DNA from: a virus
Taxonomy: Duplodnaviria > Heunggongvirae > Uroviricota > Caudoviricetes
Length of the DNA: 64,000 nucleotides
Virus record (IMG/VR): IMGVR_UViG_3300037461_000469
Coordinates: 93,752 to 157,751 of that record
Reading direction: 5' to 3' (one strand)
Shown: piece after piece, positions 13,252 through 34,134 of the stretch
Numbering within the stretch: the first letter of the stretch is position 1
How the letters are laid out: each line of letters starts with the position of its first letter
The notes under the pieces: generated by a model
Database searches by the model: none
What the model was told of the DNA's origin: nothing
What the model saw: only the letters and a program-made list of their open reading frames with translations
Position numbers and translations under genes: made by a program

Positions 13252-14616
13252 TTACAGAGCAGAGTTGCGAACGCTTACCACCGCGTAATATTTTTCTGTG
13301 TCCAAAAGTTGCGTTACGATGGCGTAACGGCTACCCAACGAGAGTAGTGGGTGGAAGTCATGTGGCGAGATGGTCTTCATCATCATCACTGGGATGTATG
13401 GGCAATAGAGGATACCTGAGTCGAAACTCTTCTTTCCCTTGTAACCCATCAAGATGTAACCAACCTCTTTGTCTACGTTGTTTGCAGGTGCTTCCCAATA
13501 CAGGTCAAGGTAAACCTTAACCTTACCGGATTCGATTGTACCCAAGTACACAACGCCTTCACCGCCCTCGTAAGGCTCGAAGCCATCGACAGGCTGAACT
13601 GCGCTGTAGTCAAAGGCCTTGATTGCTGACAAGATTGAAGCAACTTCCGAAGACACAACCATCCAATTTGCACGTCCTCTACGAGTCTGATGACCGATGT
13701 AGTTCAATGCTTTGACGATTGCGTGATAGAGAGTCTTGTACTTTTCTTCCTGCCAACGACCATCCGTTGAAGCCAAGTCCCAAGTGAACAAGCCATTGGT
13801 TGTACCAAGATTGTATGCGGCCAAAATCAACTCACGGTCAATCTCTGCCTGAATCTGGTACGAGAGGAAGTCAACAATTTCCTGTTCAAGATTCAACGAG
13901 TGAACCTTCTTGATGTCGTCAACTGCTTCCTGCGACCAATTTGCTTTCAACTTACGAGTGCGAGCCTCGATAAGTCTGTTGATAATTTTGAGCGAACCTT
14001 CCGAATAAGGATACACACCGCCTGTACCATCAGGTGCGTTACCGTAGGTAGCACCAGGGGTCTGCAAGATATCCGAAAGCAATTCACCGCGGTCATTTCT
14101 CAAACCGAAACCGCCTGTGTTGGCAGTTGCATCGTCTACGGCACTCTCGTAGGTTGCGTTGTTCCAATCACCCGAATAGACAGGGTTCAAATTGGTCGAA
14201 CCTGGGATGTATGCCTGAGAGTCAGCGGTTGTGGTGTACACACGCCCTGTTACGGGGTCTGTCCACGTTACGGTTGTGTCATAAACCCAACGAAGGGTAA
14301 ATGCCATACCGACTGGGCCTTCCATCGCCTGAACGCCAAAGATTTCATTGGCAATCAGTTGTGGCATGATACGGCGAACCATAGGAATCATCAACTTTGG
14401 GAACTTGTCGATGTCGCTTCCCGGTGTAGGCGAAGTGCCTGGTCCGAAGCCGTAGCCTGAAATGGTGCTTTCACGAAGGGAAGTTCGCATCTCGCCTTCT
14501 TGGTTTTCAAGAACGATTGCGGTCATGTCTCTGGTTTCGTCATTTTTAATTCCCTTCAATAGACGAGACCATTTTTCACGAAGTCTCTTTAACTTCTGTT
14601 CTCCTGTTCCGTACAT
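13252..14616 (-). CDS. Major capsid protein, T4 gp23-like
   Basis: IPMVRRIMPQLIANEIFGVQAMEGPVG, ARTRKLKANWSQE, EIDRE, RRGRAN, GYKG, YCPYIP, SRY motifs; strong terminator. Confidence 0.97.
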   Translation of the reverse strand: MYGTGEQKLKRLREKWSRLLKGIKNDETRDMTAIVLENQEGEMRTSLRESTISGYGFGPGTSPTPGSDIDKFPKLMIPMVRRIMPQLIANEIFGVQAMEGPVGMAFTLRWVYDTTVTWTDPVTGRVYTTTADSQAYIPGSTNLNPVYSGDWNNATYESAVDDATANTGGFGLRNDRGELLSDILQTPGATYGNAPDGTGGVYPYSEGSLKIINRLIEARTRKLKANWSQEAVDDIKKVHSLNLEQEIVDFLSYQIQAEIDRELILAAYNLGTTNGLFTWDLASTDGRWQEEKYKTLYHAIVKALNYIGHQTRRGRANWMVVSSEVASILSAIKAFDYSAVQPVDGFEPYEGGEGVVYLGTIESGKVKVYLDLYWEAPANNVDKEVGYILMGYKGKKSFDSGILYCPYIPVMMMKTISPHDFHPLLSLGSRYAIVTQLLDTEKYYAVVSVRNSAL

Positions 14617-16180: not shown

Positions 16181-16542
16181 TTGACTTTTCCCTCCAATTT
16201 CTGTCCACGCTTGATTTCGGCTGCCGAATACTTCATGGCTCCGAATTTACGCAACAGGTAGGCGATGGCCTTGTCGCTGTTAAGTTTCTCGTTGCAGGCG
16301 AAAAGGTCTAGACCAACGTACTTCTGTTCAGGCCAAGTGCGAATCCCGTAGTAACTGTCGGTGATAATGACAGCCCCCGCAACCCCCATTTCCCCGAACT
16401 TGTGAAAGAGGGACGTTATGATTTCCGCTCCCGCTTCGATTGCGGCTTCCTTCATCACGTTCTCGACAAATACGACATCGCTAATACGGTCTATCTCACA
16501 GCCGTACAGTTCGACAAGAAAGTGTTTGCCTAGGTAGTCCAT
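16171..16542 (-). CDS. speD: S-adenosylmethionine decarboxylase-like proenzyme with divergent active site
   Basis: LGKHFLVELYGC...FHKF...GV.G.VII.DS...TWPE...LDLFAC matches the pyruvoyl AdoMetDC pattern. Confidence 0.8.
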   Translation of the reverse strand: MDYLGKHFLVELYGCEIDRISDVVFVENVMKEAAIEAGAEIITSLFHKFGEMGVAGAVIITDSYYGIRTWPEQKYVGLDLFACNEKLNSDKAIAYLLRKFGAMKYSAAEIKRGQKLEGKVKCR

Positions 16543-17042
16543 TATTTCCTTTTTGCTCTATTTCTAAGTGCTAAAATTTTACTATCTATAACATCCTTAT
16601 CATTGTTTAATTTTTCTATTTTTTTATTTAAAATCCTTCGTTCCTTTTCTAATTCTTTTAATTTAATTGCAGCATCGGCACCACTCATCGAATGAATTTT
16701 TAATTTATCTTTTGGAATATTATAGGTGATTATTACTTGGGTAGTGCCTTCTTTTCCTGGTTTAATAGAAACAAAATTAGGATTTCCTTCATCATTAAGC
16801 ATATCTAATATCTCATCCTGCTCAGTACTCCAACCAGCATATGCAGTAATTACAACTTGGTTTCCAACTTGTTTAACACTTTTTAAATAATACTGACCAG
16901 AACCATAAGAATCATCAAAGTCCCCACGTTGTTTCCCAATTGCAATTAATAATTCTCTTTCTGTTGGGCCGATTGACTTTTCTAATAATTTCTTCTCATT
17001 TCCCGTCCCGTACTTCTGAATATCTTCCCGTGTTAGTTTCAT
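16542..17042 (-). CDS. Hypothetical protein with N-terminal KYGT motif
   Basis: MKLTREDIQKYGTGNEKKLLE; AT-rich body. Confidence 0.6.
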   Translation of the reverse strand: MKLTREDIQKYGTGNEKKLLEKSIGPTERELLIAIGKQRGDFDDSYGSGQYYLKSVKQVGNQVVITAYAGWSTEQDEILDMLNDEGNPNFVSIKPGKEGTTQVIITYNIPKDKLKIHSMSGADAAIKLKELEKERRILNKKIEKLNNDKDVIDSKILALRNRAKRK

Positions 17043-17045
17043 GTT

Positions 17046-17687
17046 TTACTCCTTAAACAAAATCTCGCTCAACGAAACCAAATCGCCTGAGTTGAGAGTG
17101 GGTTCGATTTTCTCGGCAATTTTTTTCTCTTCAGGCTTGTGGATGGCCTCAGCCTGTTTCGATTGGGATACGAACATCCCGATGGACGGTTCGGAAACTA
17201 GGTCGAATGAAGCAATCGAAAAATCCGAAACCTCGTTTACCATCTCCTTCTCCCCCGTCTCTTCGTTCACGATTTCCTTTTCGGCAATCTCGCCTAGGCC
17301 TCTAGAAGAAAGGCCGATAACCACACCTTCCCTCATCAGGTCAGCCGCAATCTTTCCCATTGGGGTACTCTCTAGGATTCTTGCCTTGCCGATGACTTCA
17401 CCTTTCTCGTTGATTTTCAGGGGTTGCTCTACGATAAAGGCGGCGTTTCGGAGATTAACAGAGGCATCTTCTGGGTGGTCAAGTTCGCCCAAAGCCCTGC
17501 GCTTTTCGATGAAATTCGAATTGTAATCTTTAACCGCTTTCTCCATGACGGCAAGTGGATAAAGTCTTCCGTTAAGATTCTTCTTGCCGGCCAAACCGAA
17601 AATACCTTCAAAGCAAACAGAGTTGTTTTTCTTGTCAACAACGGGCTTAATCTCGGATACCGTTTCCATCAAAACTTGTTTAGACAT
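17046..17687 (-). CDS. Prohead protease, T4 gp21-like
   Basis: NLNGRLYP...ALGELDHP...GLSSRGLG...FDLVSEPS; late motif at 17708-17714. Confidence 0.95.
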   Translation of the reverse strand: MSKQVLMETVSEIKPVVDKKNNSVCFEGIFGLAGKKNLNGRLYPLAVMEKAVKDYNSNFIEKRRALGELDHPEDASVNLRNAAFIVEQPLKINEKGEVIGKARILESTPMGKIAADLMREGVVIGLSSRGLGEIAEKEIVNEETGEKEMVNEVSDFSIASFDLVSEPSIGMFVSQSKQAEAIHKPEEKKIAEKIEPTLNSGDLVSLSEILFKE

Positions 17688-17707
17688 CTGCTAATCTCCT
17701 CCACGCC

Positions 17708-17714
17708 TATTTAT
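17708..17714 (-). promoter_or_regulatory. T4-type late promoter motif ATAAATA (representative site)
   Basis: Same heptamer just upstream of genes at 843, 3225, 6750, 15570, 19477, 23530, 25479, 26017, 29611, 32505, 38075, 39535, 40460, 41101, 43984, 57346, 58394, 63417 (minus) and 9887 (plus); close to T4 TATAAATA. Confidence 0.8.
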
Positions 17715-17717
17715 TGT

Positions 17718-19457
17718 TTAAGCGGGTGCGACTGGTGCGGCAGGAGCCGCAGGAGCCGCCTCGCCCCCTGCTACCTCTGTACCCGTTGTTTCAGCGGCTT
17801 CTTCAGGTGGAGTTTCCGTCAAAGTTTCATCGCCGCCGCCACCTGGAATTTCTCCTGCGCCCGCGCCGCCCATCAAGCCACCACCACCGCCTGCGCCTTC
17901 AGCCCCCGCTCCACCGCCGAAACTTGCAAGTAGTTTCTGTTCCTTTTCCAACCACTTGAAGTTTTCGCGCAAGTCTTCGTCCGTCCACTTCAAGTACCTC
18001 TTGGAAAGGTAGATGAAAGAGAATAACGGGTTCTGACCGTTCAAAGCGGCAAACGAATTGGAACGCCACTCTTCCACTTCCGCTGACTTCAATTCCGAAT
18101 ACGGATTGACGTGGCTGAAGCGGACTTCGACCTGATGTTTCTTCAACTGAAGCCTATCAACCAACCCACGGAAAAATAGATGGCGGTAGAACAATTCCTG
18201 AATGAACTGCTCCATGAATCGACCTTGAAGCCTCTTGATGAAGTTAGCAAACTTGACTTCATCCCGCATGATTTCACCCATTCTGCTTCCCGTGGTCGCA
18301 GTCGAGTACTCACCCGCTTCGTTAGGAAGGTTCATTCTGCCGACAGGAATCTTCATCGCACGATAAACCTTGCCCAAGAAGTAACGGATTTCATCCATCG
18401 ATTCCCACTTGGTATCCTTTTCCGAAACGGTATCAACGGTGCAGATTTCTTGACCGCCTTCCATCACGGGGAAGAAGTAGTCATCAAGCATCGTGATGGG
18501 GTTGAATCCTATGATTTCCCCTTTCTCGGAATCGTACTGAATATCTTCACGTAGCCTCTGACGGAAATCGTAGAGGTAGTGTTCGATGTCCTTTGGAGCC
18601 ATCTTGCCTACGTAGACCTTGAATACTCTGCGAAGAGGACTGCGGCTCAATTTGTAGATAACTGTTGCGTCTTCGATGAGGTTAAGCCTGCGCCAATCCT
18701 TCTTGGCAAATTCAAGCATCGAAAAGAATTCGCCGTCATATGTGTATCCGCAGTCGAAGCGAAGGATTTCTTCTTCACGATACTTGTATCCTTCTTCCGC
18801 ACCTTCATTGTCCTTCACCACGTAGTAGTGCTTCTCCATCTCCTGTTTGCTTTCGTCTTTTTCCACGGTCTTCTCAGCCATGAACTTCGTAACGAGCCAA
18901 GGCTGAAGTTCTTCTAGGCTCTCCACCCCTGTCGCTTCCTTGTCGGAGAAGTTAATTTTGAACAGGATGATGCCCTGAACCAACCACTTGTAGACCCATT
19001 CCCAAACAGCATTGTAGTCCCCCAATCGCAAACGGTTGACAATCAAATCACGGAACTCGGCAATCAGGATTTCCCGTGTAGGAGTCTTAACGTCCTCGTC
19101 AAATTTGAGCATGAAGAGTTTCTTATTTTCATCCTCTTGTACGATTTCATCTGCAACTTCCGTCAAGGCATAATTGATTTCAGGGTCAGCTGCCATTCGA
19201 TAGTACTCACGGATTCTTTCTTTGGAAGCGTGTTTTACGAGATAAGACCCGTAAACGTAATCCGTGTACTGCTTCGATAGGGTGCTATCCCCCTTTCCGA
19301 ACAAGCCGTCTGCCGTATAAGGTGTAACGGCCTCCTCTTTTTTGATAAGTTCTCCGGCTTTTGGTTGCCGTCCGAACATCGAAAAGATTCTTTTTATAGC
19401 GGCCTTGCGGTCAGCAAGTTGTTGTATCTTGCGCTCTTCTTTGGTCATACGCGCCAT
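17718..19457 (-). CDS. Portal protein, T4 gp20-like
   Basis: YRMAADPEI..AL.E..DE; IEDATVIYKLSRSP.RRVFKVYVGKM; DDYFFP; RDEVKF; late motif at 19477-19483. Confidence 0.95.
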   Translation of the reverse strand: MARMTKEERKIQQLADRKAAIKRIFSMFGRQPKAGELIKKEEAVTPYTADGLFGKGDSTLSKQYTDYVYGSYLVKHASKERIREYYRMAADPEINYALTEVADEIVQEDENKKLFMLKFDEDVKTPTREILIAEFRDLIVNRLRLGDYNAVWEWVYKWLVQGIILFKINFSDKEATGVESLEELQPWLVTKFMAEKTVEKDESKQEMEKHYYVVKDNEGAEEGYKYREEEILRFDCGYTYDGEFFSMLEFAKKDWRRLNLIEDATVIYKLSRSPLRRVFKVYVGKMAPKDIEHYLYDFRQRLREDIQYDSEKGEIIGFNPITMLDDYFFPVMEGGQEICTVDTVSEKDTKWESMDEIRYFLGKVYRAMKIPVGRMNLPNEAGEYSTATTGSRMGEIMRDEVKFANFIKRLQGRFMEQFIQELFYRHLFFRGLVDRLQLKKHQVEVRFSHVNPYSELKSAEVEEWRSNSFAALNGQNPLFSFIYLSKRYLKWTDEDLRENFKWLEKEQKLLASFGGGAGAEGAGGGGGLMGGAGAGEIPGGGGDETLTETPPEEAAETTGTEVAGGEAAPAAPAAPVAPA

Positions 19458-19496
19458 ATTAATTGACTCCTAATGTTATTTATTCAAAATCTATTT

Positions 19497-20246
19497 TTAG
19501 TGCCTGTATTGTGAAAGTTGATTGATGACTCTTCCGAAATTCTTCTTGGCTTCTTCTATCTTCAGCGGGGCGATAGGCTTGACAGGAGTTATCACTTCCA
19601 AAGCCCGTTCAAGGGCTTCAATCGGCACTACGTAGATACGGGAGTTGATTTTGCTGAACTTGTATCTGCGGTAAAAGAGTACTTTATCCGACATCTTTTT
19701 GCGGATGTAGTCGTAGATGGAATCTGAAGTGTAGGACTTGCGGAAGATGTGGCGTTCCTCTCCCAAAAGGTTCTTGACCTTCATCGACCCTCTCATCATC
19801 TTCTCGGAGTGGATTTCGGTCTTGCGGAAAAATTCAAACAGTCGCTTGCGCTCACCTGTTGAAAGGTATTGCAGAGAGATACCTTCTAAGGTGTTGTATC
19901 GTGGGTCAGTCCCCACGTAGAAAACTATCGGGGTGGGAACGTGGTCGTAGGATGAGTAGGCAAAGACGTAACAATTGCCTGGGACGATTTGGGTTCGGCT
20001 GACGGGAATCAGCAGTTCGGTATTGTAGTAGCGGAGAAGAGGTCGGATTTTCTTCTCTCGTTTGAGTTTCTTAGCCTCTTCCAATCTAATTGCTTTTTTC
20101 TGTTTTTCTAATTCCGCTTTTTCAATTGGTTTTTGAGGAAGTTCTTTTTGTTGTTTTCTTGCTGCTAAGGTTTTAAGGTCTTGTTCAGTTAAAGGAGTTG
20201 AGGGGGCTACAGGATATGGATATTGATTTTGGTTTGTATCGGCCAT
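19497..20246 (-). CDS. DNA end protector, T4 gp2-like
   Basis: PGNCYVFAYSSYD..P.P...EGISLQYLS resembles gp2 PG..Y.F.YD...GINLHYL. Confidence 0.6.
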   Translation of the reverse strand: MADTNQNQYPYPVAPSTPLTEQDLKTLAARKQQKELPQKPIEKAELEKQKKAIRLEEAKKLKREKKIRPLLRYYNTELLIPVSRTQIVPGNCYVFAYSSYDHVPTPIVFYVGTDPRYNTLEGISLQYLSTGERKRLFEFFRKTEIHSEKMMRGSMKVKNLLGEERHIFRKSYTSDSIYDYIRKKMSDKVLFYRRYKFSKINSRIYVVPIEALERALEVITPVKPIAPLKIEEAKKNFGRVINQLSQYRH

Positions 20247-20253
20247 TCTACTA

Positions 20254-20874
20254 TTATTTAGTACCTTTCTTTGTATTCTCTTCAGCCCAAAGTGGTTGAA
20301 GGTTTGAATAATGATTGGCTTTCAAAAATTGAATTCTATCTTGAAGGTTGAAAGATGCTAGGGGTTTAATGTGGTCAATATGCCACTCACCCCAATTATC
20401 CCAATTCATTCCTTCCTGAAATTTGGATTCTAAGTGTGTTTTGAGTTCAGGAACAGAACAACCTAAGTCTTTGACTGCGGAACCTGATTTTTGGTTAGAG
20501 TGTATGGCTTTTCGTAGTCTGTCTCGTAAACTAACAGCAATTTTATAATTAATGTCAGTTTTTAATCTATTACTTTGGTATTTTTTATCATAGATTGCTT
20601 TTTCTTTTTTATGATTTTTATTATATTTTCTTTGTTTCAATAAATATTTTTCTTTATTTGTTTGATAACGAATTTTATTTTTTCTTAATATCTCATTTTT
20701 ATTTTTTTCATAATTTTTTCTTTTTCTTAATTTTATTTTTTCTTTATTTTCTTTTTCGTATATTTTTCTTTTTTTTAATATTTCATCTTTATTTTCTTTA
20801 TAATATTCTATAGATGTATTTTTTATTTTTTCTTTATTCTCTATATAATATCTTATATTCTTTTCATCTGCCAT
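20254..20874 (-). CDS. HNH endonuclease (paralog 2 of 3)
   Basis: KTDINYKI..LR.R...QKSGSAVKDLGCS...WHIDHIKPL...HYSNLQPLWAEEN; very AT-rich. Confidence 0.85.
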   Translation of the reverse strand: MADEKNIRYYIENKEKIKNTSIEYYKENKDEILKKRKIYEKENKEKIKLRKRKNYEKNKNEILRKNKIRYQTNKEKYLLKQRKYNKNHKKEKAIYDKKYQSNRLKTDINYKIAVSLRDRLRKAIHSNQKSGSAVKDLGCSVPELKTHLESKFQEGMNWDNWGEWHIDHIKPLASFNLQDRIQFLKANHYSNLQPLWAEENTKKGTK

Positions 20875-20893
20875 TTCATTTTTATTCTATCGT

Positions 20894-21310
20894 TTAATAT
20901 TTTTGCCAAGGCTTTTGAGTACGGCTTTCATCAGGTTCTTCTTCGTCAATCGCTCCATCTCCTAAAAGATGTTCCAATTCCATCATCAATTCTTCACGTT
21001 CATCTGGTTCACTTTCATCATCTGTAATGTAAACGTATAACCGTTCCATCAGGTCTTCTGGAACCGTAATTGTTCCGATACCGTATTCGCTCTCGTAATC
21101 TTCTGAAGGTTTTTCTCCCGCTTCCTGTTCGTCTTCCAAGGAGATTTCTTCTTCGGGTAGGGATTGGTCTTGTTCGTCCCCGACAGGGATTTCAAATGGG
21201 TCAGAACCTTCAAGCAGTTTTATTTCTTCCGGAGTTCCGTACTTCGTGATATCTTCTTTCTTTAATTTCTTCTTCAATCTCTTCAACATTGTAGGTGTTT
21301 TCTTTGCCAT
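20894..21310 (-). CDS. Acidic hypothetical protein with KYGT motif
   Basis: KKEDITKYGTPEEIKLLE near N-terminus. Confidence 0.6.
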   Translation of the reverse strand: MAKKTPTMLKRLKKKLKKEDITKYGTPEEIKLLEGSDPFEIPVGDEQDQSLPEEEISLEDEQEAGEKPSEDYESEYGIGTITVPEDLMERLYVYITDDESEPDEREELMMELEHLLGDGAIDEEEPDESRTQKPWQKY

Positions 21311-21311
21311 T

Positions 21312-21749
21312 TTATGCTCCTAGTTCTATCAGCATATCCTGATAATCAGATGTTGATAGTAATGTATACAGTTTGCCTGGAATTCGTTTCGGTGGTTTGG
21401 AATCATCCACGACTACGACACGGATGAAATTGTTGCTCTGCTGCCAAATTTGGTCGGCTAGTTTCAGGAAGTCAGGAAATTCCTTTTGAAAGAAATTGGG
21501 AATCTGCTGAGAGCCTTGGAATTTCTTGCCGATGAGACGGTACATCGAATAGGATTTGCCTGATTCATTTTTCTGCTCTGCATTTTCTGCGCCGAAAGCG
21601 GATAGCCGTTGTTCCAACTGTGCTACGTATTGGTCGGCTTCGGGTGCGGAGCGGTCCGGAGTGTAGATATGAAACTCAATCATCAGGTTGGAGTTTTGCT
21701 CTACCGTTTGTACATCCTGAGCCACATCTTCTACAATTCTGAATTCCAT
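21312..21749 (-). CDS. Hypothetical protein
   Basis: 145 aa ORF in head operon. Confidence 0.6.
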   Translation of the reverse strand: MEFRIVEDVAQDVQTVEQNSNLMIEFHIYTPDRSAPEADQYVAQLEQRLSAFGAENAEQKNESGKSYSMYRLIGKKFQGSQQIPNFFQKEFPDFLKLADQIWQQSNNFIRVVVVDDSKPPKRIPGKLYTLLSTSDYQDMLIELGA

Positions 21750-21931
21750 TATTCCTTGTCTCTTCCCTTATCGATATCCTCGGCACACATATCGCACACC
21801 TTGCCTGTATCACCTTTCTTTAAAGGCTTGCCGCAACGAGCGCAGACTTTCTTTTTCTTCTTTGTCGCTTCAAGAAAAAGAATTTCCTCTTTGGTTCCGT
21901 ATTTGAAAACGTCTTCCTTGGTGAGTTTCAT
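21749..21931 (-). CDS. Small protein: KYGT motif plus Zn finger
   Basis: MKLTKEDVFKYGTKEEILFLE then CARCG...CDMC. Confidence 0.6.
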   Translation of the reverse strand: MKLTKEDVFKYGTKEEILFLEATKKKKKVCARCGKPLKKGDTGKVCDMCAEDIDKGRDKE

Positions 21932-26054: not shown

Positions 26055-26330
26055 TTATTCGTTGTGGAGTTTTTCCCATAAATTAATCTTATCGGAGTAC
26101 TGCGGGAAATACTCGGCCACGTACTTGCGGAACTCTTTCAGGCGCATACAGGAGTTAACAAACTCGTCCTTGGTGGCTTGCGGAAGGTTGGAGCCTAGCA
26201 TATATGTTATCAGTTTTTCAAACGGCTCTTTGTATCCATCTTCTTCTGTGATGGTTGTACTTTTCCAAGTTGGTCCAGAAGGAACCGCACTTCCGACATA
26301 ATCTGCAAAATCCCAATCACCTGCTGCCAT
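26055..26330 (-). CDS. Hypothetical protein
   Basis: 91 aa ORF immediately after the polymerase. Confidence 0.55.
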   Translation of the reverse strand: MAAGDWDFADYVGSAVPSGPTWKSTTITEEDGYKEPFEKLITYMLGSNLPQATKDEFVNSCMRLKEFRKYVAEYFPQYSDKINLWEKLHNE

Positions 26331-26331
26331 C

Positions 26332-28947
26332 TTACACTCCTAGTTTTTGCGTTACCGCTTTTTTCTTTTTGATTCGATTGACGATGTTCAACTTGCTCTT
26401 GTCAACCAACTGCGTCTTCGCTAGGAAGAGTTTGTAGTGCAAGTCCTCGTCAATCAGTTGGATTTTCTTCACCAAAAAATCCTGAAAATATTTGTCGTAA
26501 TCGATTTCGAATTTCAGGTTCAGTTCGGGGTCGTAGTGAATGATTTCTCGGTGGTCTTTGACGAACAGGATGTTCACCGTCTCGCCCCGCTTGATTGTCG
26601 TGTTGGAATTGCGGATGGCTCGGACGTGTTGAACCCCTGTGTCGTACTCTTCCATCCTCTTGCTCATCTTTTTGCGGATAACAAGGTCGATTGCCGACTG
26701 ACTCTTCAGGTCAACCTTGACCTTTTTGCAGAACGCCCTGAGTGTCTCCACGTCCCCGTAGTGGGTCAGGATGGTACTGTACAGGTTCATCAGCACCTTC
26801 TTGAAGAAAGTTGGTGTATCGTCCTTGACGGCTTCGAAGCCCTTGATGTACAGTCGCTCTTCCTTCAAGACCTTGCCTTTGAAGTACTTCAAAAATCCGA
26901 CTTGCTTTTTCTTTGCGGGAGCAAGCAGAAGTTTGGAAAACGACTTTTCGAACACGGTCTTCATAATGTGCGAGTCGAGAACCTTCCTGTTCTTGGTGAA
27001 TTTTTCCAAGAACTCAGGTAGTCCTTTGTTGAACAAATCCTGCAAGGCTTTCGACTTGTCGATGGTCTGCTCAAAACTGTCGGCTTCGATTTTGATAAAG
27101 ATGGAGTCCGTGTCTCCCGTCAAAATCCTGTAGCCCTGTTCTTCTGCGGCGTTCTTGACGTAGCGCAACGTTTCACGGGCAACGTAGGTAACGCAAGCCG
27201 CAACCCGTTGGTCGTAAAGGATAAATCCTCTGTAGCCTAGAACGCCGTACAGGGCGTTGCAAGTTGCCTTGAAGCACGATTCCATGTCGTTGACGATTTT
27301 AAACTCTTGCGAGTTCCCATCGAACTGCATTTTGCGCTGAGTAAGTTTGTCCCGTTCGTTAATCAGCAGTTGCGACAGTTGCGGAACCACACCACGCTTT
27401 TTCGTGGTGAACATGATTTTGCCGATTTTGATGTCGGTCTGCGGGTCGTAGTCCTTCAACTCTTCGATGATGGTCTCCTTCGAAAGATTGAGCGAGACCA
27501 TGATGGTCGGGTACAGGCGTGAGAAGTCGTACACCGAAACGTTTTCGAACAGCCCTGGCACGGTGTCCAACACCAACGCCCCTTCGAACGTGCTGTCCAA
27601 GTTCTGCTTGTGTTTCGAAGGGAACTTGAACTGCTTGAAGCGTTGGTGAATCAGCGTTTCCAAGAAGCGGCTGTTGAAGTAGACGTTTTCGTAGGCTTGC
27701 GGAGCAATCTTCTGATACAGCATCGGGAACTCGATAATTTTCTGCATCTGTGCGATTTTCTCGGTAAGGTAAACGTCCTGAACGTTGTACTTAATCAACT
27801 TGGTCAGGTCGTTCTCTTCCCACAACACGTCCACGCCTTCGTGTTCGATTTTCTTTTCGTTAAACAAGTGCTTGGCTACGGCATCCAACGTCCACGCAAT
27901 CGGCTTGTTCTCCACGATAATCCACTTGGCGTAACGAAGGTAGTCCCACAGGATTACTTCGTGGCAGTAGTAGGATTTTTCGCCGTCCTTGCCGATGCTC
28001 TCGTAGACTTCGGAAAGAAACGGCGTGAAGTCCACCTCCAACTTTTTGCTTCGGTGCAAGAGGTAGGGGACATCGAAGAAGTCGGCGTTCCAACCGCCTA
28101 GCAAGTCCACTTCCAACTTCGCCATCGCCGCAAAGAAGTGGGTGAGCATCTTGGCTTCGTCTTCGAACTCAAAGATTTTCTCCGTCTTGAACTGCGACTT
28201 GTCGTAGGTTTGGTCGTGTCGCTTCTTCAAAATCCACACGAAATTCTTGTCGTAGGTGTTGACGTAGGCCACGATGGAAACGATTGGCTCAGGCGTGTTG
28301 ATTGTGTCGAGCGACAGGTTCGTTTCGATGTCGAACGTGGCGTAGGTTAGCAGTCTCGTGTGGGCGATGTTCGGGTAGTTGTCGAAGTAGAACAAGTCCT
28401 TGGAGCGCAAGTGGTCTTCGTAGGTCTGCTCAAAGGTCTGATACTCTTTCGGCACTTTCTTCAACCGCTTGCCATCGTAAGAGAGGAACTCGCCGTCAGG
28501 GTCGGCAACGTACTTGATGTTCGCCTTGTGCGTGTTCCTAGCCTTGATTTTCTTGAAGTCGAGATTCCGATAAAAGTATGCCTTGTCCGTAACTCGGACG
28601 AGTGCGAAACGGGAGAAGTAGTTGTTCAACTTCTCCCGCAACTCCTTGATTTTGGTTGTGGCTTCCTTTTTCTCGGTCTTGTCGTAATCCTTGTAGTTTT
28701 TCAGAGAGACGAACATCTGCCCGTCTTGGTCTTTGAAAAACTTTCCAAAATCCTTGTCGGGGAATTTGCGGTAAAGCAAATTCGCTCCAAACAGAACAAC
28801 TAGGTTTGCGTCCAACCCTTTCGCATCAGCCTCAAAAACGTGGCTGTAGACTTGCGGGTTGAATTTTTTCAACAACTTCGTTTTGATGAAGTCATCGTTC
28901 TTCCCAAATTGTTCCTTCTCTGAAACGAAAATAATATGTTTAGACAT
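26332..28947 (-). CDS. Family B DNA polymerase with 3'-5' exonuclease (gp43 role)
   Basis: Exo DIETN, GWNADFFD, YNVQDV; Pol YDFSRLYP, KATCNALYG, GDTDS; no intein-sized insert. Confidence 0.95.
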   Translation of the reverse strand: MSKHIIFVSEKEQFGKNDDFIKTKLLKKFNPQVYSHVFEADAKGLDANLVVLFGANLLYRKFPDKDFGKFFKDQDGQMFVSLKNYKDYDKTEKKEATTKIKELREKLNNYFSRFALVRVTDKAYFYRNLDFKKIKARNTHKANIKYVADPDGEFLSYDGKRLKKVPKEYQTFEQTYEDHLRSKDLFYFDNYPNIAHTRLLTYATFDIETNLSLDTINTPEPIVSIVAYVNTYDKNFVWILKKRHDQTYDKSQFKTEKIFEFEDEAKMLTHFFAAMAKLEVDLLGGWNADFFDVPYLLHRSKKLEVDFTPFLSEVYESIGKDGEKSYYCHEVILWDYLRYAKWIIVENKPIAWTLDAVAKHLFNEKKIEHEGVDVLWEENDLTKLIKYNVQDVYLTEKIAQMQKIIEFPMLYQKIAPQAYENVYFNSRFLETLIHQRFKQFKFPSKHKQNLDSTFEGALVLDTVPGLFENVSVYDFSRLYPTIMVSLNLSKETIIEELKDYDPQTDIKIGKIMFTTKKRGVVPQLSQLLINERDKLTQRKMQFDGNSQEFKIVNDMESCFKATCNALYGVLGYRGFILYDQRVAACVTYVARETLRYVKNAAEEQGYRILTGDTDSIFIKIEADSFEQTIDKSKALQDLFNKGLPEFLEKFTKNRKVLDSHIMKTVFEKSFSKLLLAPAKKKQVGFLKYFKGKVLKEERLYIKGFEAVKDDTPTFFKKVLMNLYSTILTHYGDVETLRAFCKKVKVDLKSQSAIDLVIRKKMSKRMEEYDTGVQHVRAIRNSNTTIKRGETVNILFVKDHREIIHYDPELNLKFEIDYDKYFQDFLVKKIQLIDEDLHYKLFLAKTQLVDKSKLNIVNRIKKKKAVTQKLGV

Positions 28948-29521
28948 TTTCTAAATTTTTTCTTCTTGATGCGTAAGATGATATTGCTCGTTGTTTGGCC
29001 TTTTCAGGATGAGTTTGCCAAAATATTTGATTTTTCTCATTACGTTGTTTTAGTTTTTCAGGGTGATTTTTCCAAAATATTTTTTGTTTTTCCCCTCTAC
29101 TTTCTACTTCAATCGGATGAGTTTTATCGTAATATTTTTTTCTTTTACTTTGTTTAATTCGTTCTTCTAAATTTTTATAAAATATTTTTTTAGTTTTACT
29201 TATTTGTTGTTTCGTTATTTCGTGATGATGTTTGTTTTTTTGTCCCCCACTATCAAGATTATAACCATTGGGTGTGATTGTATTTAATTCTTTTATTAAA
29301 AAACTTTCTGTCCAATCTAAATCTTTTTCGGGACAAGAGAAGAAAATCCATTTGAAATTTTCAGTTCCATATTTTTTAATAGCACTATCAATCAAAGGAC
29401 AATATTTGTAAGTTTCGTGTTCATAAATTCTTTGTTTTAAATTTCTACTTGTTTGCCCAATATATTGTTTTCCGTTTTGTAAATTAATAACGATATAAAT
29501 AATTCCGCAATTCTTATCCAT
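28940..29521 (-). CDS. GIY-YIG homing endonuclease
   Basis: GIIYIVINLQNGKQYIGQT...R..EH...AIKKYG...GYNL; start set at the ATG after the GGGAGG RBS. Confidence 0.88.
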   Translation of the reverse strand: MDKNCGIIYIVINLQNGKQYIGQTSRNLKQRIYEHETYKYCPLIDSAIKKYGTENFKWIFFSCPEKDLDWTESFLIKELNTITPNGYNLDSGGQKNKHHHEITKQQISKTKKIFYKNLEERIKQSKRKKYYDKTHPIEVESRGEKQKIFWKNHPEKLKQRNEKNQIFWQTHPEKAKQRAISSYASRRKNLENV

Positions 29522-29525
29522 TCCA

Positions 29526-29617
29526 ACCCTCCCGTAGTCGAAAATAGTGTAGGTAATCTTGGGAAACGGGAGTTCCCAAGAAAAGGTGCTACCTTTCGTC
29601 CCTACACTATTATTTAT
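29526..29617 (-). ncRNA. Structured cis leader RNA, copy B
   Basis: Outer arms 29544-53/29601-10 (10 bp perfect); hairpin 29558-65/29573-80; loop CTCCCGT (minus) complementary to ACGGGAG at 29529-35; ATAAATA at 29611-17. Confidence 0.75.
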
Positions 29618-29843
29618 TGTCTTCAAACTGTTCTGTAGTAAAATAAAATCTGCGACAAGTGTAAGATTTAGGTAAAATTTCTTTAAAATATGAACAAGTG
29701 GAACAACAGGTACTTTTTAATTCTGGAAAATGGATTAATACAAATTCCATACCGTTGAGTTTAAAAAGACCCTTCTGCTTGGAGTCCATCTTGTCCACGA
29801 GTGGGCAAGGGTCATAAAGGCTTTCGTTTTTATTTTTAGCCAT
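29610..29843 (-). CDS. Small Cys-rich protein, possible divergent member of the adjacent paralog array
   Basis: CPLVDK...H...CCSTCSYF; own promoter motif at 29863-29873. Confidence 0.6.
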   Translation of the reverse strand: MAKNKNESLYDPCPLVDKMDSKQKGLFKLNGMEFVLIHFPELKSTCCSTCSYFKEILPKSYTCRRFYFTTEQFEDNK

Positions 29844-29863
29844 CGTTTTTCTCCTTACTTTAA

Positions 29864-30256
29864 TTATACCACAAACGGTTGCAAAACAGCGGAACCTGCG
29901 GAAGTTCCCGATACAAGGGTGGAATATTTATAACTTGTTGGGGTGTAATAGACGGTGTAGTTATCGGTGGTAATGTCTCCCCAATACGGCCCACCGCTTG
30001 TGTTCGGCGTAGTCGTGGTGATGATGTACGGATTGGAAGGTTGATGGGGTTGGGGTTGAGGTGGCGGCGTGTACGGAATATACGTCCACGGCGTAAGCAC
30101 GGATTGGTCGAAAAATCGGCAACTCTTGCAACACCCACACAACTCATAAGCCTCGTTATTATTCTTTTCCTGATGGCCTCGGCAGATGCCGTTGCGACCA
30201 TGCAGAATGAGTTTCAGTTTTTGCTTGTCAGAAAAGGGACATCCTTTTGGAATCAT
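29864..30256 (-). CDS. Array member 6: Cys/His module plus weak MCP-like tail
   Basis: MIPKGCPFSDKQKL...LH...C...CKSC; FDQSVL..TYIPYTP weakly like MCP FDSGILYCPYIP; AGGAGG RBS. Confidence 0.75.
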   Translation of the reverse strand: MIPKGCPFSDKQKLKLILHGRNGICRGHQEKNNNEAYELCGCCKSCRFFDQSVLTPWTYIPYTPPPQPQPHQPSNPYIITTTTPNTSGGPYWGDITTDNYTVYYTPTSYKYSTLVSGTSAGSAVLQPFVV

Positions 30257-30270
30257 TTCATGGTTCCTCC

Positions 30271-30480
30271 TTATTCTATTTTTATTGGATTACTCTCACT
30301 CGTTAAGAATTTTACCCAAGACTGCATCGCTTCATCCATCATTCTGTACTCGGCTGTCCAAGCACTAGAGTATGGGCAAGTTTTACAACGCAAAGGGTCA
30401 GCACCAAGAATGTTACATTTCCCCTTCAGGGTTGCTTCTAATTTTCCTTTGTTGTTCAGCAGACAAGTTTTAGGTATCAT
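30271..30480 (-). CDS. Array member 5: Cys module plus weak MCP-like tail
   Basis: MIPKTCLLNNKGKL...C...CKTC; SAWTAE...WVKFLTSE weakly like MCP ANWSQE...IVDFLSYQ; ATGA-coupled. Confidence 0.75.
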   Translation of the reverse strand: MIPKTCLLNNKGKLEATLKGKCNILGADPLRCKTCPYSSAWTAEYRMMDEAMQSWVKFLTSESNPIKIE

Positions 30481-30914
30481 ATTTTAAATATATCCCAAAT
30501 CCTTTTCCAAATGCTCGGCTTGGGTTTAACAACAGGCTTGGTTTCTTCAAGGTCATCTACTATCATCCAAGTAGGTGATATGCCGTTGTAGGCATTACTG
30601 TTAAGATTTAAAGAATGGGTGTGCATGGGCATCGATGTTTGACCTGACCAATAAGGAGAGGCGGCACTTGCTCCAGGTAATCCTAGTTGCGACCCACGCA
30701 TCGGTATATTCGGATTTGCTTGAATTGCTGCCATTAAATTCCCATACAACAGGTCGTGTTTCCTCTGCCGTTCTTCAAGAATCTGACAACCCGCACAATC
30801 ACAATCAAGGGCTGAATTTTGTGCTTCTTCTCTCATCAGAAATACGAAACAGTCGTGATGAAGGGTAGCCCACAACTTGTATTTATCACTTAGCGGACAT
30901 TTTTTTCCTAACAT
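30477..30914 (-). CDS. Array member 4: Cys/His module plus weak MCP-like segment
   Basis: MLGKKCPLSDKYKL...LHHDC...CAGC; RKHDLLYGNLMAA weakly like MCP EKYKTLYHAIVKA. Confidence 0.75.
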   Translation of the reverse strand: MLGKKCPLSDKYKLWATLHHDCFVFLMREEAQNSALDCDCAGCQILEERQRKHDLLYGNLMAAIQANPNIPMRGSQLGLPGASAASPYWSGQTSMPMHTHSLNLNSNAYNGISPTWMIVDDLEETKPVVKPKPSIWKRIWDIFKI

Positions 30915-31170
30915 TTTTCTTCCCTTTATAAACCCATTTCATTTTAAATATCGTTCCTACTGGACCCGCCATTGGCTGAACGTTGAAAATATCGTTGGCT
31001 ATCAGTTTCGGAATGGCTCTTCGTACAGCGGGGATTTTGAATTTGAGAGAGTAAGGACACTTCGCACAACATTCTTTCTCTCCGAAATGCTCTGCGGAGT
31101 ATTTGCAATCTCCGTGCATCGTTACGTAAAACTTGTCTCTGTCGCTGAGTGGGCATCCTTTGTTTATCAT
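30886..31170 (-). CDS. Array member 3: Cys/His module plus MCP residues 77-112 (Gol region)
   Basis: MINKGCPLSDRDKF...MHGDC...CAKC; IPAVRRAIPKLIANDIFNVQPMAGPVGTIFKMKWVY is 23/36 identical to this phage's MCP. Confidence 0.85.
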   Translation of the reverse strand: MINKGCPLSDRDKFYVTMHGDCKYSAEHFGEKECCAKCPYSLKFKIPAVRRAIPKLIANDIFNVQPMAGPVGTIFKMKWVYKGKKNVRKKMSAK

Positions 31171-31361
31171 TCTACTGCCCTTCTTATAAATTCGTTATCA
31201 ATTTCCTTTGCCAACTCTTCGCTCATTATTTTAACAAGTTCATCTTCTAGATTAAGGCTACATCCCTTTAAACAATTAGGATGGGTATGAAGGGTACACT
31301 CGTGGTGAAGGATTACGTAGAGTTTGTCTTTGTCGCTGAGAGGACAGTCTTTGCGAATCAT
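31167..31361 (-). CDS. Array member 2: Cys/His module plus MCP residues 240-267
   Basis: Start at MIRKDCPLSDKDKL (ATGA overlap at 31358-31361); SLNLEDELVKIMSEELAKEIDNEFIRRA is 14/28 identical to MCP. Confidence 0.82.
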   Translation of the reverse strand: MIRKDCPLSDKDKLYVILHHECTLHTHPNCLKGCSLNLEDELVKIMSEELAKEIDNEFIRRAVE

Positions 31362-31576
31362 TTTTTTGCCTTCATAATTTGAATCGGGATGTATGGAGTA
31401 TAAAATACTCCCGCATCCATAATATTTGCGAGAAAAGAACATCCATCACAACGGTGTCCTTTAGGCCAAACTGAAGAGTCAAGGCTATCCCATCCTTTTG
31501 TATAACCCCGACAACTATTGTGTAGGATTGACCATAGTTTTTCTTTATTACCAAAGGGACACGTCTTGGGTATCAT
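31358..31576 (-). CDS. Array member 1: Cys/His module plus MCP residues 399-414
   Basis: MIPKTCPFGNKEKL...LHNSC...CDGC; DAGVFYTPYIPIQIMK is 9/16 identical to MCP; ATGA-coupled to gp62-like gene. Confidence 0.82.
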   Translation of the reverse strand: MIPKTCPFGNKEKLWSILHNSCRGYTKGWDSLDSSVWPKGHRCDGCSFLANIMDAGVFYTPYIPIQIMKAKK

Positions 31577-31947
31577 TCATACCTCTGTTTAATCTCCTTC
31601 TTCTCTTCCTTCGTCAGCAACTCGGCGTAATCTTTCGCAACCTTCGTAGAAACTTTATAAACTTTCTTCAAATATTCAACCTCTATCAAGTTTACTTCCT
31701 TCGTCTTGGTTGACTTTATCCACCCTTTCGGATAGACCCCTTTGTAGAGGATGCAGAACAATTTGTACTGCGCTTCCTTCGGCAAACTCCAAAGCACATT
31801 CAGCAGATTGGCATACTTCTCGTACCCTGCGTAGTAGTAGAGCCGATTGAGTAAGTACGGCTGGAACTCCTTCATTTCGTCAGGGTTCAACGGTTCGCCC
31901 TGTTGAATCTGCTTTGTGAACCGAAAAGGGCTATTCGTGTTTTCCAT
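31573..31947 (-). CDS. Clamp loader small subunit, T4 gp62-like
   Basis: FQPYLLNR...AN.LN...QY...W.K...Y.VS.K.A..Y..LLT.E pattern; lies downstream of gp44-like. Confidence 0.75.
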   Translation of the reverse strand: MENTNSPFRFTKQIQQGEPLNPDEMKEFQPYLLNRLYYYAGYEKYANLLNVLWSLPKEAQYKLFCILYKGVYPKGWIKSTKTKEVNLIEVEYLKKVYKVSTKVAKDYAELLTKEEKKEIKQRYE

Positions 31948-32214: not shown

Positions 32215-32499
32215 CTAAACAGTTGGTAGGACTCTCTTGATTATCCGTTTTTTCTTCTTTTTTGCCCCTAAAGGCATCTTGTCGATGGCTTGTTTTCCGT
32301 CTGCGGTTGCCGTGGGGAATCCTGCGCCTGCTAGGGTTTGTTCTTTTACATCCTTTTTCTCTTTCTCGGCTTTTTCTTTCTCGTCCGCTACCTTTTTCTT
32401 GTAGTCTTCCCATTCCTTATTTTTTTGGAAATGCTTTTGTAAAGCCCCTGCGCCGTATGACCCTTTTCGTTTGCGTTCGATTACTCTAAACTTTGCCAT
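32215..32499 (-). CDS. Small basic late protein
   Basis: 94 aa ORF; late motif at 32505-32511. Confidence 0.55.
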   Translation of the reverse strand: MAKFRVIERKRKGSYGAGALQKHFQKNKEWEDYKKKVADEKEKAEKEKKDVKEQTLAGAGFPTATADGKQAIDKMPLGAKKKKKRIIKRVLPTV

Positions 32500-32507
32500 A
32501 CTATTAT

Positions 32508-33368
32508 TTATTGTTTGAGGCGGTGCAGTTCGGCAACAAATCCCACGAAGTTAATTTCCTTGTCCACGCACAGAGCGTCCTGATAAGCGTACTTCGCCAA
32601 CAGGATTGCCTTCTGCGGGTCTTCCGTCCTTTCGAACAGGAAGCGATACAGGCCATCGTAATCCGTGCTGTGTCCCGCAAAGTACCGTTTCAATTCTACG
32701 ATGTTCCCACCCTTGATGATTTTCCAAATCTCTCCGAACGTCTCTTCGGGCAGTTCCAACTTCCCCGACATCGAATACCGCTGAAGGTAATTCAACGCCC
32801 TGCGCAAGTCTCCCCCGCACAGGCGGTAAACCGTATCTAGGGCTTCGGGTTCGTACTTAACCTTCTCCTTTTCAAGCACTCCTTTGAGGTACTTTAGCGT
32901 TTCCTCCTTGGTTGGCTTGGTGAAGTTAAACAGCGTACAGCGGCTTCGGATGGCTTCGCTAAATTTATAAAGATGATTGGTCGCAAAAATAAAACTTACT
33001 ACTTTGTGATACCTCTCAGTTATTTCTTTAAGGGCTTTCATCGCATCTGGAGATAAATTTTCACTTTCATCCATAAAAACTATTTTTCTCTTAGAATTAA
33101 ATGCCTTGACTTGGATGAAATCTTTTATTTGTCCACGAACAACATCAATTGACCTATCATCACTACCATTTAATCTTAAATATTCAGCGTCTAATTCTCG
33201 AATAAATATTAAGGCTGTAGTTGTTTTTCCGACACCTGGTGGACCGTAAAAAATTAGATTTGGAATAAACTTGGATTGTAAATATTGCTTAAAAGTATTT
33301 CGTTGTTCTTCCGAAAGTATCATTTCATCTAAATTTTTAGGTCTGTAAAATTCATTCCAAATTTTCAT
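32508..33368 (-). CDS. Clamp loader large subunit, T4 gp44 / RFC-like AAA+
   Basis: WNEFYRPK, GPPGVGKTT, NGSDDR.ID, DE, SRC motifs; start at ATGA overlap with endonuclease stop. Confidence 0.93.
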   Translation of the reverse strand: MKIWNEFYRPKNLDEMILSEEQRNTFKQYLQSKFIPNLIFYGPPGVGKTTTALIFIRELDAEYLRLNGSDDRSIDVVRGQIKDFIQVKAFNSKRKIVFMDESENLSPDAMKALKEITERYHKVVSFIFATNHLYKFSEAIRSRCTLFNFTKPTKEETLKYLKGVLEKEKVKYEPEALDTVYRLCGGDLRRALNYLQRYSMSGKLELPEETFGEIWKIIKGGNIVELKRYFAGHSTDYDGLYRFLFERTEDPQKAILLAKYAYQDALCVDKEINFVGFVAELHRLKQ

Positions 33369-34021
33369 TTTTCTAAATATTCTCCTATCCAACCTTTGTG
33401 ATGTGGTCGTTTATTTTTAAGTACATCACAAATATGACCTCTATTTAAGTCGTGTTCTTTACAAAAAAGAGAATAAGATTTTATTTCATATTTTTTCCCT
33501 TCAGGAGAAATTAATCTGATTAATTTGGCTCGTGGGTGTAATTCCCCTCTGAAATCTGCGTGGTTATCTTTCATATGTTTTTTGTGTAATTCTGACTTAG
33601 GGCCTTTCATTTTTTCAATTGCTTTTAAAGGTCTGCGGATTCCTGTGTATTTTTCTTTCAATCTTTCTTTAATCTCTTCTTTACATTTTCTACCCAAACA
33701 ACCATTACCACCCTTTGTTAAATTCCACCCTGTTCTTTGTTCGGGGTCGTAGGTCTTTAATTCATCAATCCAAAACATTTCTCTTTCGTCTAAAATAAAT
33801 TTGAGATTTTTTGGGACTTCGTGATGAACCTCAATAACACGAAAACATTTTGGTTGAAAATATTTTCTCAAAGAGTTATGGAAATGGAAATTTGAATTTT
33901 TCGTTGTGAAATGTTCTTTTATTCTTCTTTTTAAATTTACGGCTTGGCCTACATAACCTTTACCACTAATCGTAAAAAGGTAAATGAATCCCCAAATCTT
34001 TTTATTTTCGTCTTGGTTCAT
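33365..34021 (-). CDS. GIY-YIG homing endonuclease with NUMOD-type C-terminus
   Basis: GFIYLFTISGKGYVGQA..L.RR.KEH...GWNLTKGG; C-terminal NRGHICDVLKNKRPHHKGW. Confidence 0.85.
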   Translation of the reverse strand: MNQDENKKIWGFIYLFTISGKGYVGQAVNLKRRIKEHFTTKNSNFHFHNSLRKYFQPKCFRVIEVHHEVPKNLKFILDEREMFWIDELKTYDPEQRTGWNLTKGGNGCLGRKCKEEIKERLKEKYTGIRRPLKAIEKMKGPKSELHKKHMKDNHADFRGELHPRAKLIRLISPEGKKYEIKSYSLFCKEHDLNRGHICDVLKNKRPHHKGWIGEYLEK

Positions 34022-34025
34022 TTGG

Positions 34026-34117
34026 CCCTCCACTTGGTCAAAATATAGTGTAGGTAATTCAAAATGAGTGGACATTTTGAAAGGGTAGCAACTCCTTGTC
34101 CCTACACTATTATTTAG
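34026..34117 (-). ncRNA. Structured cis leader RNA, copy C
   Basis: Outer arms 34045-54/34101-10; hairpin 34058-66/34073-81; loop TCCACT (minus) complementary to AGTGGA at 34029-34 in the RBS; CTAAATA variant at 34111-17. Confidence 0.75.
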
Positions 34118-34134
34118 TGTTTTCACATTAAACC

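Follow-up and report, generated by a model that had tools for sequence, protein, structure and literature searches.

Organization of the gene array

We analysed a 64,000-nucleotide (nt) window of phage DNA, positions 93,752 to 157,751 of the IMG/VR virus record IMGVR_UViG_3300037461_000469 (Caudoviricetes), a record of 168,828 bp that derives from a wetland metagenome and is 74% complete according to CheckV. The window contains an array of seven small genes (o1-o7, 29610-31576, minus strand) between the genes for gp62 and gp43, in the replication cluster. All seven encode proteins that begin with a common cysteine-rich module, and the tails that follow this module in three of them match separate parts of the same phage's major capsid protein (MCP). 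Positions given below are those of the window, except where they are marked as genome positions, which refer to the source record.

The first gene of the array, o1 (31358..31576, 72 amino acids, aa), combines the putative zinc module with a tail that copies the 'YCPYIP' strand of the MCP (segment 3). It is followed by o2 (31167..31361, 64 aa, starting with the ATG at 31361), in which a C-x3-C variant of the module precedes a copy of the MCP spine-helix region (segment 2). The module of o3 (30886..31170, 94 aa) leads into a copy of the gp23 block that is conserved best and corresponds to the Gol region, and then into a Lys-rich end. None of the phage's proteins is significantly similar to the tail of o4 (30477..30914, 145 aa), and that of o5 (30271..30480, 69 aa), with the pattern 'W-x-K-x-L ... 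IKIE', has no recognised origin. An extended module and a Pro/Thr/Tyr-rich tail, predicted to be disordered, make up o6 (29864..30256, 130 aa), which was present in every related array seen. Finally, o7 (29610..29843, 77 aa) is a diverged member (CPLVDK ... CCSTC) that the hidden Markov model (HMM) of the module matches with an E-value of 1.6e-10. A preliminary description of this DNA had listed six minus-strand open reading frames, all of which exist where it placed them, and o7 was added as the seventh.

ATGA overlaps are present at four junctions (gp62/o1, o1/o2, o2/o3, and o4/o5). The frames had been described as mostly ATGA-coupled, which holds within the array for o1/o2, o2/o3, and o4/o5 and not for the other two junctions among the first six genes, as o3 and o4 overlap by 29 nt and a gap of 14 nt, in which a GGAGG ribosome-binding site lies, separates o5 from o6. 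Good ribosome-binding sites precede both o6 and o7.

The cysteine-rich module

The common N-terminus of the seven proteins reads M-I-x-K-x-C-P-L-S-D-K-x-K-L-x3-L-H-x2-C, followed after 8-20 residues by C-x2-C. The module thus occupies about 45 N-terminal residues with the pattern C-x15-C-x(8-20)-C-x2-C and a 'DKxKLWxxLH' helix, and alignment of the modules confirmed both the shared consensus and the later CxxC-type pair that had been noticed before. Across 82 members of the wider family described below, four cysteines are invariant (C6, C22, C35, and C38 in o3 numbering), and lysine is conserved at module positions 4, 11, and 13. Four invariant ligands in a small domain, seen throughout these 82 sequences, are what is generally expected of a zinc-binding Cys4 knuckle, and the module is presumably of this kind. 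AlphaFold modeled it with a predicted local distance difference test score (pLDDT) of 74-87 and placed a helix over DKxKLxxxLH.

Comparisons of the module with known folds and families gave no assignment. The o3 model found no fold match with Foldseek against the PDB (best E-value 1.7) or in a wide VIA-align search (best Z 2.3), and the ESM Atlas returned no usable match for o6. No Pfam family consistently matched the module in o1-o7 and the 82 members, and PHROGs held no family for it.

Two further sets of proteins with recurring sequence patterns were noticed. The ending Y-x-P-x-[YL]-x-D-K-[IV]-x-L-W-E-x-L-H is shared by three otherwise unrelated proteins (11392-11934 and 26055-26330, both on the minus strand, and 4833-4997 in L003); it resembles the module helix D-K-x-K-L-W-x-x-L-H, and the two may represent a shared short docking motif. 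Outside the window, at genome 16.8-25.2 kb (minus strand), lies a second small Cys-rich multigene family with about ten tandem copies and the pattern K-[YF]-[KR]-L-W-x-x-L-H ... C-x2-C ... C-x-E-W-[IV]-K-Y-V, one member of which (18971-19435) contains the collagen-like stretch WSGVSGFSGVSGFSG.

Capsid protein segments in the tails

The MCP that the tails copy in part (13252..14616, minus strand, 454 aa) belongs to the T4 gp23 family as a distant member, and its identity to the gp23 proteins of cyanophages and T-even phages is about 33%. Three tails matched it at separate places. Residues 43-81 of o3 (30928..31044) are identical to MCP 74-112 at 24 of 39 positions, with a BLASTP E-value of 1e-14 and a Pfam Gp23 E-value of 4e-11 (profile positions 9-48). 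For o2, aa 35-62 (31176..31259) correspond to MCP 240-267 with 14 of 28 residues identical (BLASTP 4e-6; Gp23 0.003, profile positions 168-194), and for o1, aa 54-69 (31370..31417) correspond to MCP 399-414 with 9 of 16 identical (BLASTP 1e-5; Gp23 0.014, profile positions 311-330). The score of o3 against PF07068 (Gp23) was 43.2 bits, well beyond the gathering cut-off of 24.4, and those of o1 and o2 fell below this cut-off. When each tail was shuffled 1000 times and aligned to the phage MCP by the Smith-Waterman method, none of the shuffles equalled the observed score of o3, o2, or o1 (z approximately 26, 10, and 11, respectively). Related proteins showed the same matches: an o2-like protein of L001 reached 27.0 bits with Gp23, above the gathering score, and its match extends back to about MCP 220, and an o1-like tail of L002 matched the identical Gp23 profile positions to o1.

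The preliminary description had aligned these three tails to the MCP by eye, and its alignments were upheld by BLASTP, by the shuffle control, and by the Gp23 profile at three different positions. It had also suspected weaker echoes of the MCP in o4, o5, and o6, and these did not survive the same check, since shuffles equalled the score in 73, 833, and 752 of 1000 cases, respectively, and no Gp23 match was found; demonstrable capsid similarity is therefore lacking in half of the six genes then listed. The o7 tail likewise scored no better than shuffles against the MCP, and tails of the o6 class aligned to the MCP family profile with an hhalign probability of 0.2%. The o5-type tail was considered as a mimic of the C-terminus of the scaffold protein (…SFSRELEEWAEKAGV), and this candidate was dropped with a class HMM E-value of about 1, which is not significant.

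Of the 376 positions of the Gp23 profile, no more than 20-49 are covered by any one tail (9-48, 146-194, and 311-330). Judged by this coverage, the tails are fragments of capsid proteins and not capsid proteins, as none of them spans the whole HK97-type fold. Identity at third codon positions between the tails and the MCP gene was only 29-38%, and thus the tail DNA diverged from the MCP gene long ago, the similarity is upheld solely at the protein level, and a recent duplication is excluded, as had been argued previously. In addition, the o3 tail aligns to aa 99-136 of T2 gp23 with 59% identity and is homologous to the Gol block, which we take to be gp23 aa 93-122.

Genomic context and expression

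The minus-strand gene order runs from the gp44 clamp loader through two small genes and gp62 to the array, and on to a GIY-YIG homing endonuclease and gp43 DNA polymerase. The gp62-like clamp-loader subunit (31573..31947, minus strand) forms the upstream flank, and its stop codon overlaps the start codon of o1; the gp43-like DNA polymerase (26332..28947, minus strand) forms the downstream flank of the locus. Genes for GIY-YIG-type homing endonucleases flank the locus on two sides (28940-29626 and 33365-34126, both minus strand). The former is missing in the close relative G001, and in L003 o7 runs straight into the polymerase gene.

An extended -10-like motif, TGGTATAA(T) or TGGTATAAT, lies at 29864..29871 (minus strand) directly upstream of o7 and recurs before many genes of the genome; at o7, an AAGGAG ribosome-binding site comes after it. 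Besides this sigma-70-like -10 element, a late-like AATAAATA motif occurs at 32513, upstream of the array, and o1 itself is ATGA-coupled to gp62. Another late-like AATAAATA motif was seen at 29619, in the leader of the homing endonuclease gene 28940-29626. A generic promoter scan gave nothing above shuffles, and TATAAATA was not enriched.

The interval between genes 62 and 43 holds regA in T4, and a search of the present record, which is 74% complete, found no homologue of regA. The occupation of this position by the array, together with the conserved lysines at module positions 4, 11, and 13, would suit feedback regulators whose Lys-rich knuckle attaches to nucleic acid while free structural protein is sensed by the tail. 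We regard this explanation as highly improbable: no RNA- or DNA-binding fold emerged from the Foldseek and VIA-align searches, the other loci of the family do not occupy regA-like positions, and the rapid gain and loss of the genes, described below, would be unusual for regulators of essential late genes.

The wider protein family

A profile of the module only was searched against 1.84 billion representative proteins (E <0.001) and retrieved 90 metagenomic proteins, which are cluster representatives; nearly all of them begin with the module and have a length of 57-153 aa. Gp23 pieces were found in 16 of the 82 members scanned (best E-value 1e-13), and the C-terminal domain of the tail sheath protein in 8-9 of the 82 (Pfam E-value 6e-8, above the cut-off; PHROG 23 E-value 3e-14). 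No further family recurred among the tails of these 82 members. Class profiles of the capsid-type tails were aligned to the phage's own MCP and fell on four separate conserved blocks, namely MCP 78-115 for seg1 (E-value 4e-16), 222-265 for seg2 (2e-9), 302-334 for seg4 (8e-6), and 397-419 for seg3 (1.4e-5). Tails of the seg1 class are 59-61% identical to T-even gp23, compared with 61.5% to the MCP of their own phage. The expectation that homologous modules elsewhere also carry MCP pieces was thus borne out for 16 of 82 members and for four segments, and the proposed architecture, a Cys-rich module bearing capsid pieces, was supported and can be extended to a sheath domain and one collagen-like repeat.

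At least 16 members of the family, distributed over four loci, are present in the source genome and 11-12 in G001. In the source genome, they include a second array of six members (genome 29332-30645), one of which has a seg4 tail, two members at about 163 kb, and a member with the seg3-like sequence 'SPYMPIYTV' at 64.5 kb. Another member, at 78.2 kb, has the tail WGYSGWSGYSGWSGYSG, which copies the collagen-like G-x-S repeats in fibre-like proteins of this phage. Five large proteins encoded at genome 209-9516 (plus strand) contain long G-Y-S / G-x-S runs, with Gly at every third residue, and are probably collagen-like tail fibres. Taken together, the sequence comparisons place o1-o7 among the many paralogs of one family of small phage proteins, whose identifiable tails are conserved copies of segments or domains of self-assembling virion proteins (capsid blocks, the sheath 'handshake' domain, and a fibre repeat).

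Among GenBank phages (approximately 50,700 records), no family member was found, nor any DNA match to the array or tblastn match to the module. A scan of IMG/VR with o3 found no relative.

Selection, turnover, and relatives

The ratio of nonsynonymous to synonymous rates (dN/dS) was below 1 in all pairs; the module, at 0.04-0.3, was tighter than the tails, and the o3 tail gave 0.16-0.26 at dS values of 0.7-0.9. Purifying selection, the absence of which the preliminary description had named as evidence against its proposal, is therefore present in both module and tails. For o7, which is 97% identical in G001, dN/dS was 0.07. Furthermore, seg1 tails retain invariants of the gp23 family, for example P..LIA.[DE]I..VQPM..P.G and EID.E, although their synonymous sites are saturated, and the tails are therefore under constraints like those on the real segments.

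These results bear on the idea that the array is functionless debris, that is, capsid or sheath remnants caught by a duplicating small gene, or else a set of ribosomal peptide precursors with a leader and a variable core. A conserved N-terminus with a hypervariable C-terminus in tandem arrays, next to homing endonuclease genes, would be in keeping with either origin. Nevertheless, dN/dS values well below 1 in module and tails and the retention of MCP-family invariants in spite of saturated synonymous sites argue against them, no peptide-modifying enzyme is found among the neighbours (clamp loader, homing endonucleases, and DNA polymerase), and the four cysteines lie in the conserved part and not in the variable 'core'. 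Both origins are thus very unlikely.

The relative G001 is a complete genome of 223 kb, and its MCP is identical to that of the present phage at 452 of 455 residues (99%). In its array, o3 and o4 are missing, o2 is truncated, o5 is only 53% identical, and 2 kb of other genes stand between o6 and o7. The gp62-[array]-gp43 layout was also found in L005 and L009, and array contents differ among the relatives. The array is very fluid, with genes gained or lost between phages whose MCPs are 99% identical.

At MCP residue 97, most MCPs of the clade read VQAM, and VQPM is found in other gp23 proteins, in all tails but one, and in the deepest members of the clade. The Ala in this motif was considered as an escape change and rejected, as the deep members of the clade retain Pro.

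Possible functions of the family

The only general statement that the sequence data strongly support is that these are selected, fast-turnover proteins presenting copies of virion segments, which would amount to molecular mimicry. Concerning its purpose, we tentatively prefer a competitive mimicry of assembly contacts to a decoy role towards host sensors, and our confidence in it falls somewhat short of even. The tail would take the site of the real segment on subunits of the parent protein or on their folding or assembly intermediates, and the compact knuckle would serve as a cap that blocks further building, capsid, sheath, or fibre subunits being kept unassembled or their polymerisation poisoned. 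Such a cap could be deployed in conflict with co-infecting relatives, resident prophages, or satellites that share building blocks; this use is thought likelier than a role as core assembly factor because the genes are accessory, multi-copy, and of fast turnover. The binding of tails to virion proteins, the capping, and the biological target are steps that we infer.

Contact elements are among the copied parts, and this supports a capping role. They comprise the C-terminal domain of the sheath protein, the conserved domain that joins sheath subunits in contractile sheaths; the collagen-like G-x-S repeat, which trimerises; and the N-terminal region of gp23. The T4 protein touches the scaffold core, and at a later stage the neighbouring subunits, with this region up to aa 105, and a short acidic P-domain helix beside the gp23 spine helix makes inter-capsomer contacts (PMC9546572).

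Several points weigh against competitive mimicry. First, segments 2, 3, and 4 are largely elements of the HK97-fold core and not surface contacts, and free copies of them could therefore bind only unfolded or partly folded MCP. Second, the blocks that the tails copy are the most conserved ones, and the capsid of the phage itself should therefore also be poisoned by a cap; no feature that could confer self-immunity was found. Third, about 70% of the family tails, those of o4-o7 included, have no recognisable match to a virion protein, which comes near to the outcome, homologous modules elsewhere with unrelated tails, that the preliminary description had itself named as contrary to its proposal; in addition, the tail in the o6 model is disordered, with pLDDT <50 from residue 77. 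Fourth, in a tree of the seg1 block all tails form one group that is separate from all MCPs, so that the tails do not closely track the MCP of their own phage. This tree fits a single old capture with later evolution under gp23-like constraints; co-evolution of tails and MCP is accordingly not claimed, although the tails in the window score slightly higher against their own MCP clade. Finally, the recurrent promoter motifs of the genome leave the expression timing of the array ambiguous. A complex prediction for the MCP and the o3 tail (aa 40-94), run without controls, scored 0.00 and counts neither for nor against.

The tails may instead be decoys for host factors that recognise conserved virion segments, blocking sensors or cofactors before or while the late proteins appear; we hold this to be possible, with a smaller probability than competitive mimicry. 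The o3 tail spans the stretch that corresponds to Gol in gp23, and EF-Tu and a Lit-type protease are candidate targets for it through this segment. According to a review, Lit is activated by a Gol peptide of 29 residues that binds EF-Tu, and no other part of gp23 is as conserved as Gol (PMC3014915); the MCP is also described as a trigger of CapRel (PMC9712102). The tails are generic and consensus-like and form a clade of their own, which fits a partner common to many phages and hosts, and a nascent-chain sensor such as Lit sees short unfolded core peptides. The position of the genes in a replication operon, the sigma-70-like promoter of o7, and the rapid turnover of the array genes are also in line with a decoy. 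On the other hand, a free Gol-like peptide is itself an activator of Lit, so that a decoy would have to bind without activating. Moreover, no sensor is known to us that recognises collagen-like fibre repeats or the C-terminal domain of the sheath, and most of the tails are unidentifiable. In a broader form that seems to us similarly doubtful, freshwater and wetland T4-like phages would carry a diversifying 'panel' of knuckles displaying mutation-intolerant capsid, sheath, and fibre peptides, which would blind virion-sensing immunity including the Gol/EF-Tu/Lit-type pathway.

The tails could also be address tags, the virion-like part co-assembling with capsid, sheath, or fibre and the knuckle being an effector that is delivered to the next host like the internal proteins of T4. 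C-terminal peptides load cargo into the HK97-fold shells of encapsulins, the loci of T4 internal proteins are hypervariable, and the tails are homologous to virion proteins, all of which agrees with this idea. We nevertheless consider it unlikely, as polymorphic delivery systems combine a constant address with a variable effector and the array proteins show the reverse arrangement, the genes lie in replication or early-looking regions and not in head or tail operons, and the phage has a separate candidate targeting motif on proteins of the head operon. This motif, KLTKEDI-x-KYGT-x-EE-x-x-FLE, is common to five proteins (15641-21931, 60588-62576), four of them in the head operon, and is unrelated to the zinc module.

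Significance and comparison with known systems

No published description of such proteins was found in the literature, and the design, copies of virion segments on small Cys knuckles, appears to be undescribed. If the tails act as mimics, they would represent a new principle in phage biology, in which short copies of segments of a phage's own building blocks are mounted on a stable carrier and used as competitors. The family raises questions on how phages fight over shared assembly lines, in the case of mimicry, and on how they escape immunity against capsid parts that cannot mutate, in the case of decoys. It would also mark, by natural selection, which pieces of 20-45 residues in gp23 and the sheath protein are functionally 'addressable', and the o3 class could serve as a natural reagent to explain the strong conservation of the Gol block in gp23 and to ask whether EF-Tu binding is general. 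With an identity of about 60% between the tails and the gp23 of T-even phages, T4 and E. coli would be a workable first experimental system.

Among known systems, the Gol peptide of T4 gp23 acts through EF-Tu as a trigger of the e14 Lit protease. The homology of the o3 tail is to this same block, the most conserved one in gp23, and the tail is likewise a short piece outside the whole capsid protein. However, Gol is part of the capsid protein, free Gol peptides are laboratory-made, and the o3 piece is encoded by a separate phage gene and fused to a Cys4 knuckle. A second comparison is with phage anti-defence proteins that occupy the trigger site of a sensor, such as DSAD1 acting on DSR2. Like them, the array proteins are small accessory phage proteins that would compete with a virion protein for a binding site. 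To our knowledge, the known anti-defence proteins of this type are not sequence copies of the trigger, whereas the array tails are homologous copies of a virion protein.

As regards the module, neither PF00684 (DnaJ CR) nor PF15777 (Anti-TRAP) was matched by o1-o7 or by the 82 members, and CxxCxGxG is absent from the module alignment. In view of this absence and of the lack of a consistent Pfam match, the module differs from the knuckles of the DnaJ/Anti-TRAP type or is too diverged to be recognised. In L005, a DnaJ-type CxxCxGxG protein is encoded two genes upstream of the array. A basic protein of 94 aa encoded upstream of gp62 in the window (32215-32499, minus strand) retains a conserved 'TLAGAGFPTATADGKQAIDKMPLG' stretch; its L005 orthologue (1939-2277) adds a DnaJ/Anti-TRAP CxxCxGxG double knuckle (Pfam E-values 1.7e-6 and 8e-5), which the window copy does not have.

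Cargo with capsid-targeting sequences, as known from T4 internal proteins, carries these sequences at the N-terminus together with a prohead-protease site and is encoded among head genes, whereas the virion-like part of the array proteins is C-terminal and their genes lie in the replication region; the candidate targeting motif of this phage, KLTKEDI.KYGT..E, also differs from the array tails. Precursor arrays of ribosomally synthesized and post-translationally modified peptides (RiPPs) encode leader-core peptides beside modifying enzymes, in contrast to the present array, whose neighbours include no maturation enzyme.

A further comparison is with structural mimics by which virion polymers are initiated or terminated, for instance the sheath initiator gp25/TssE and the vertex paralog gp24 of gp23 in T4, and the capsid homologue Ccm of SaPIbov5. 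In these cases too, a partial copy of a polymerising virion protein controls or redirects the polymer. They are, however, whole folded domains or whole proteins, mostly essential ones, whose genes belong to structural operons, whereas most tails of the array family are peptides of 16-45 residues on an unrelated knuckle; their genes lie in non-structural regions and can be dispensed with, as a comparison of near-identical phages shows.

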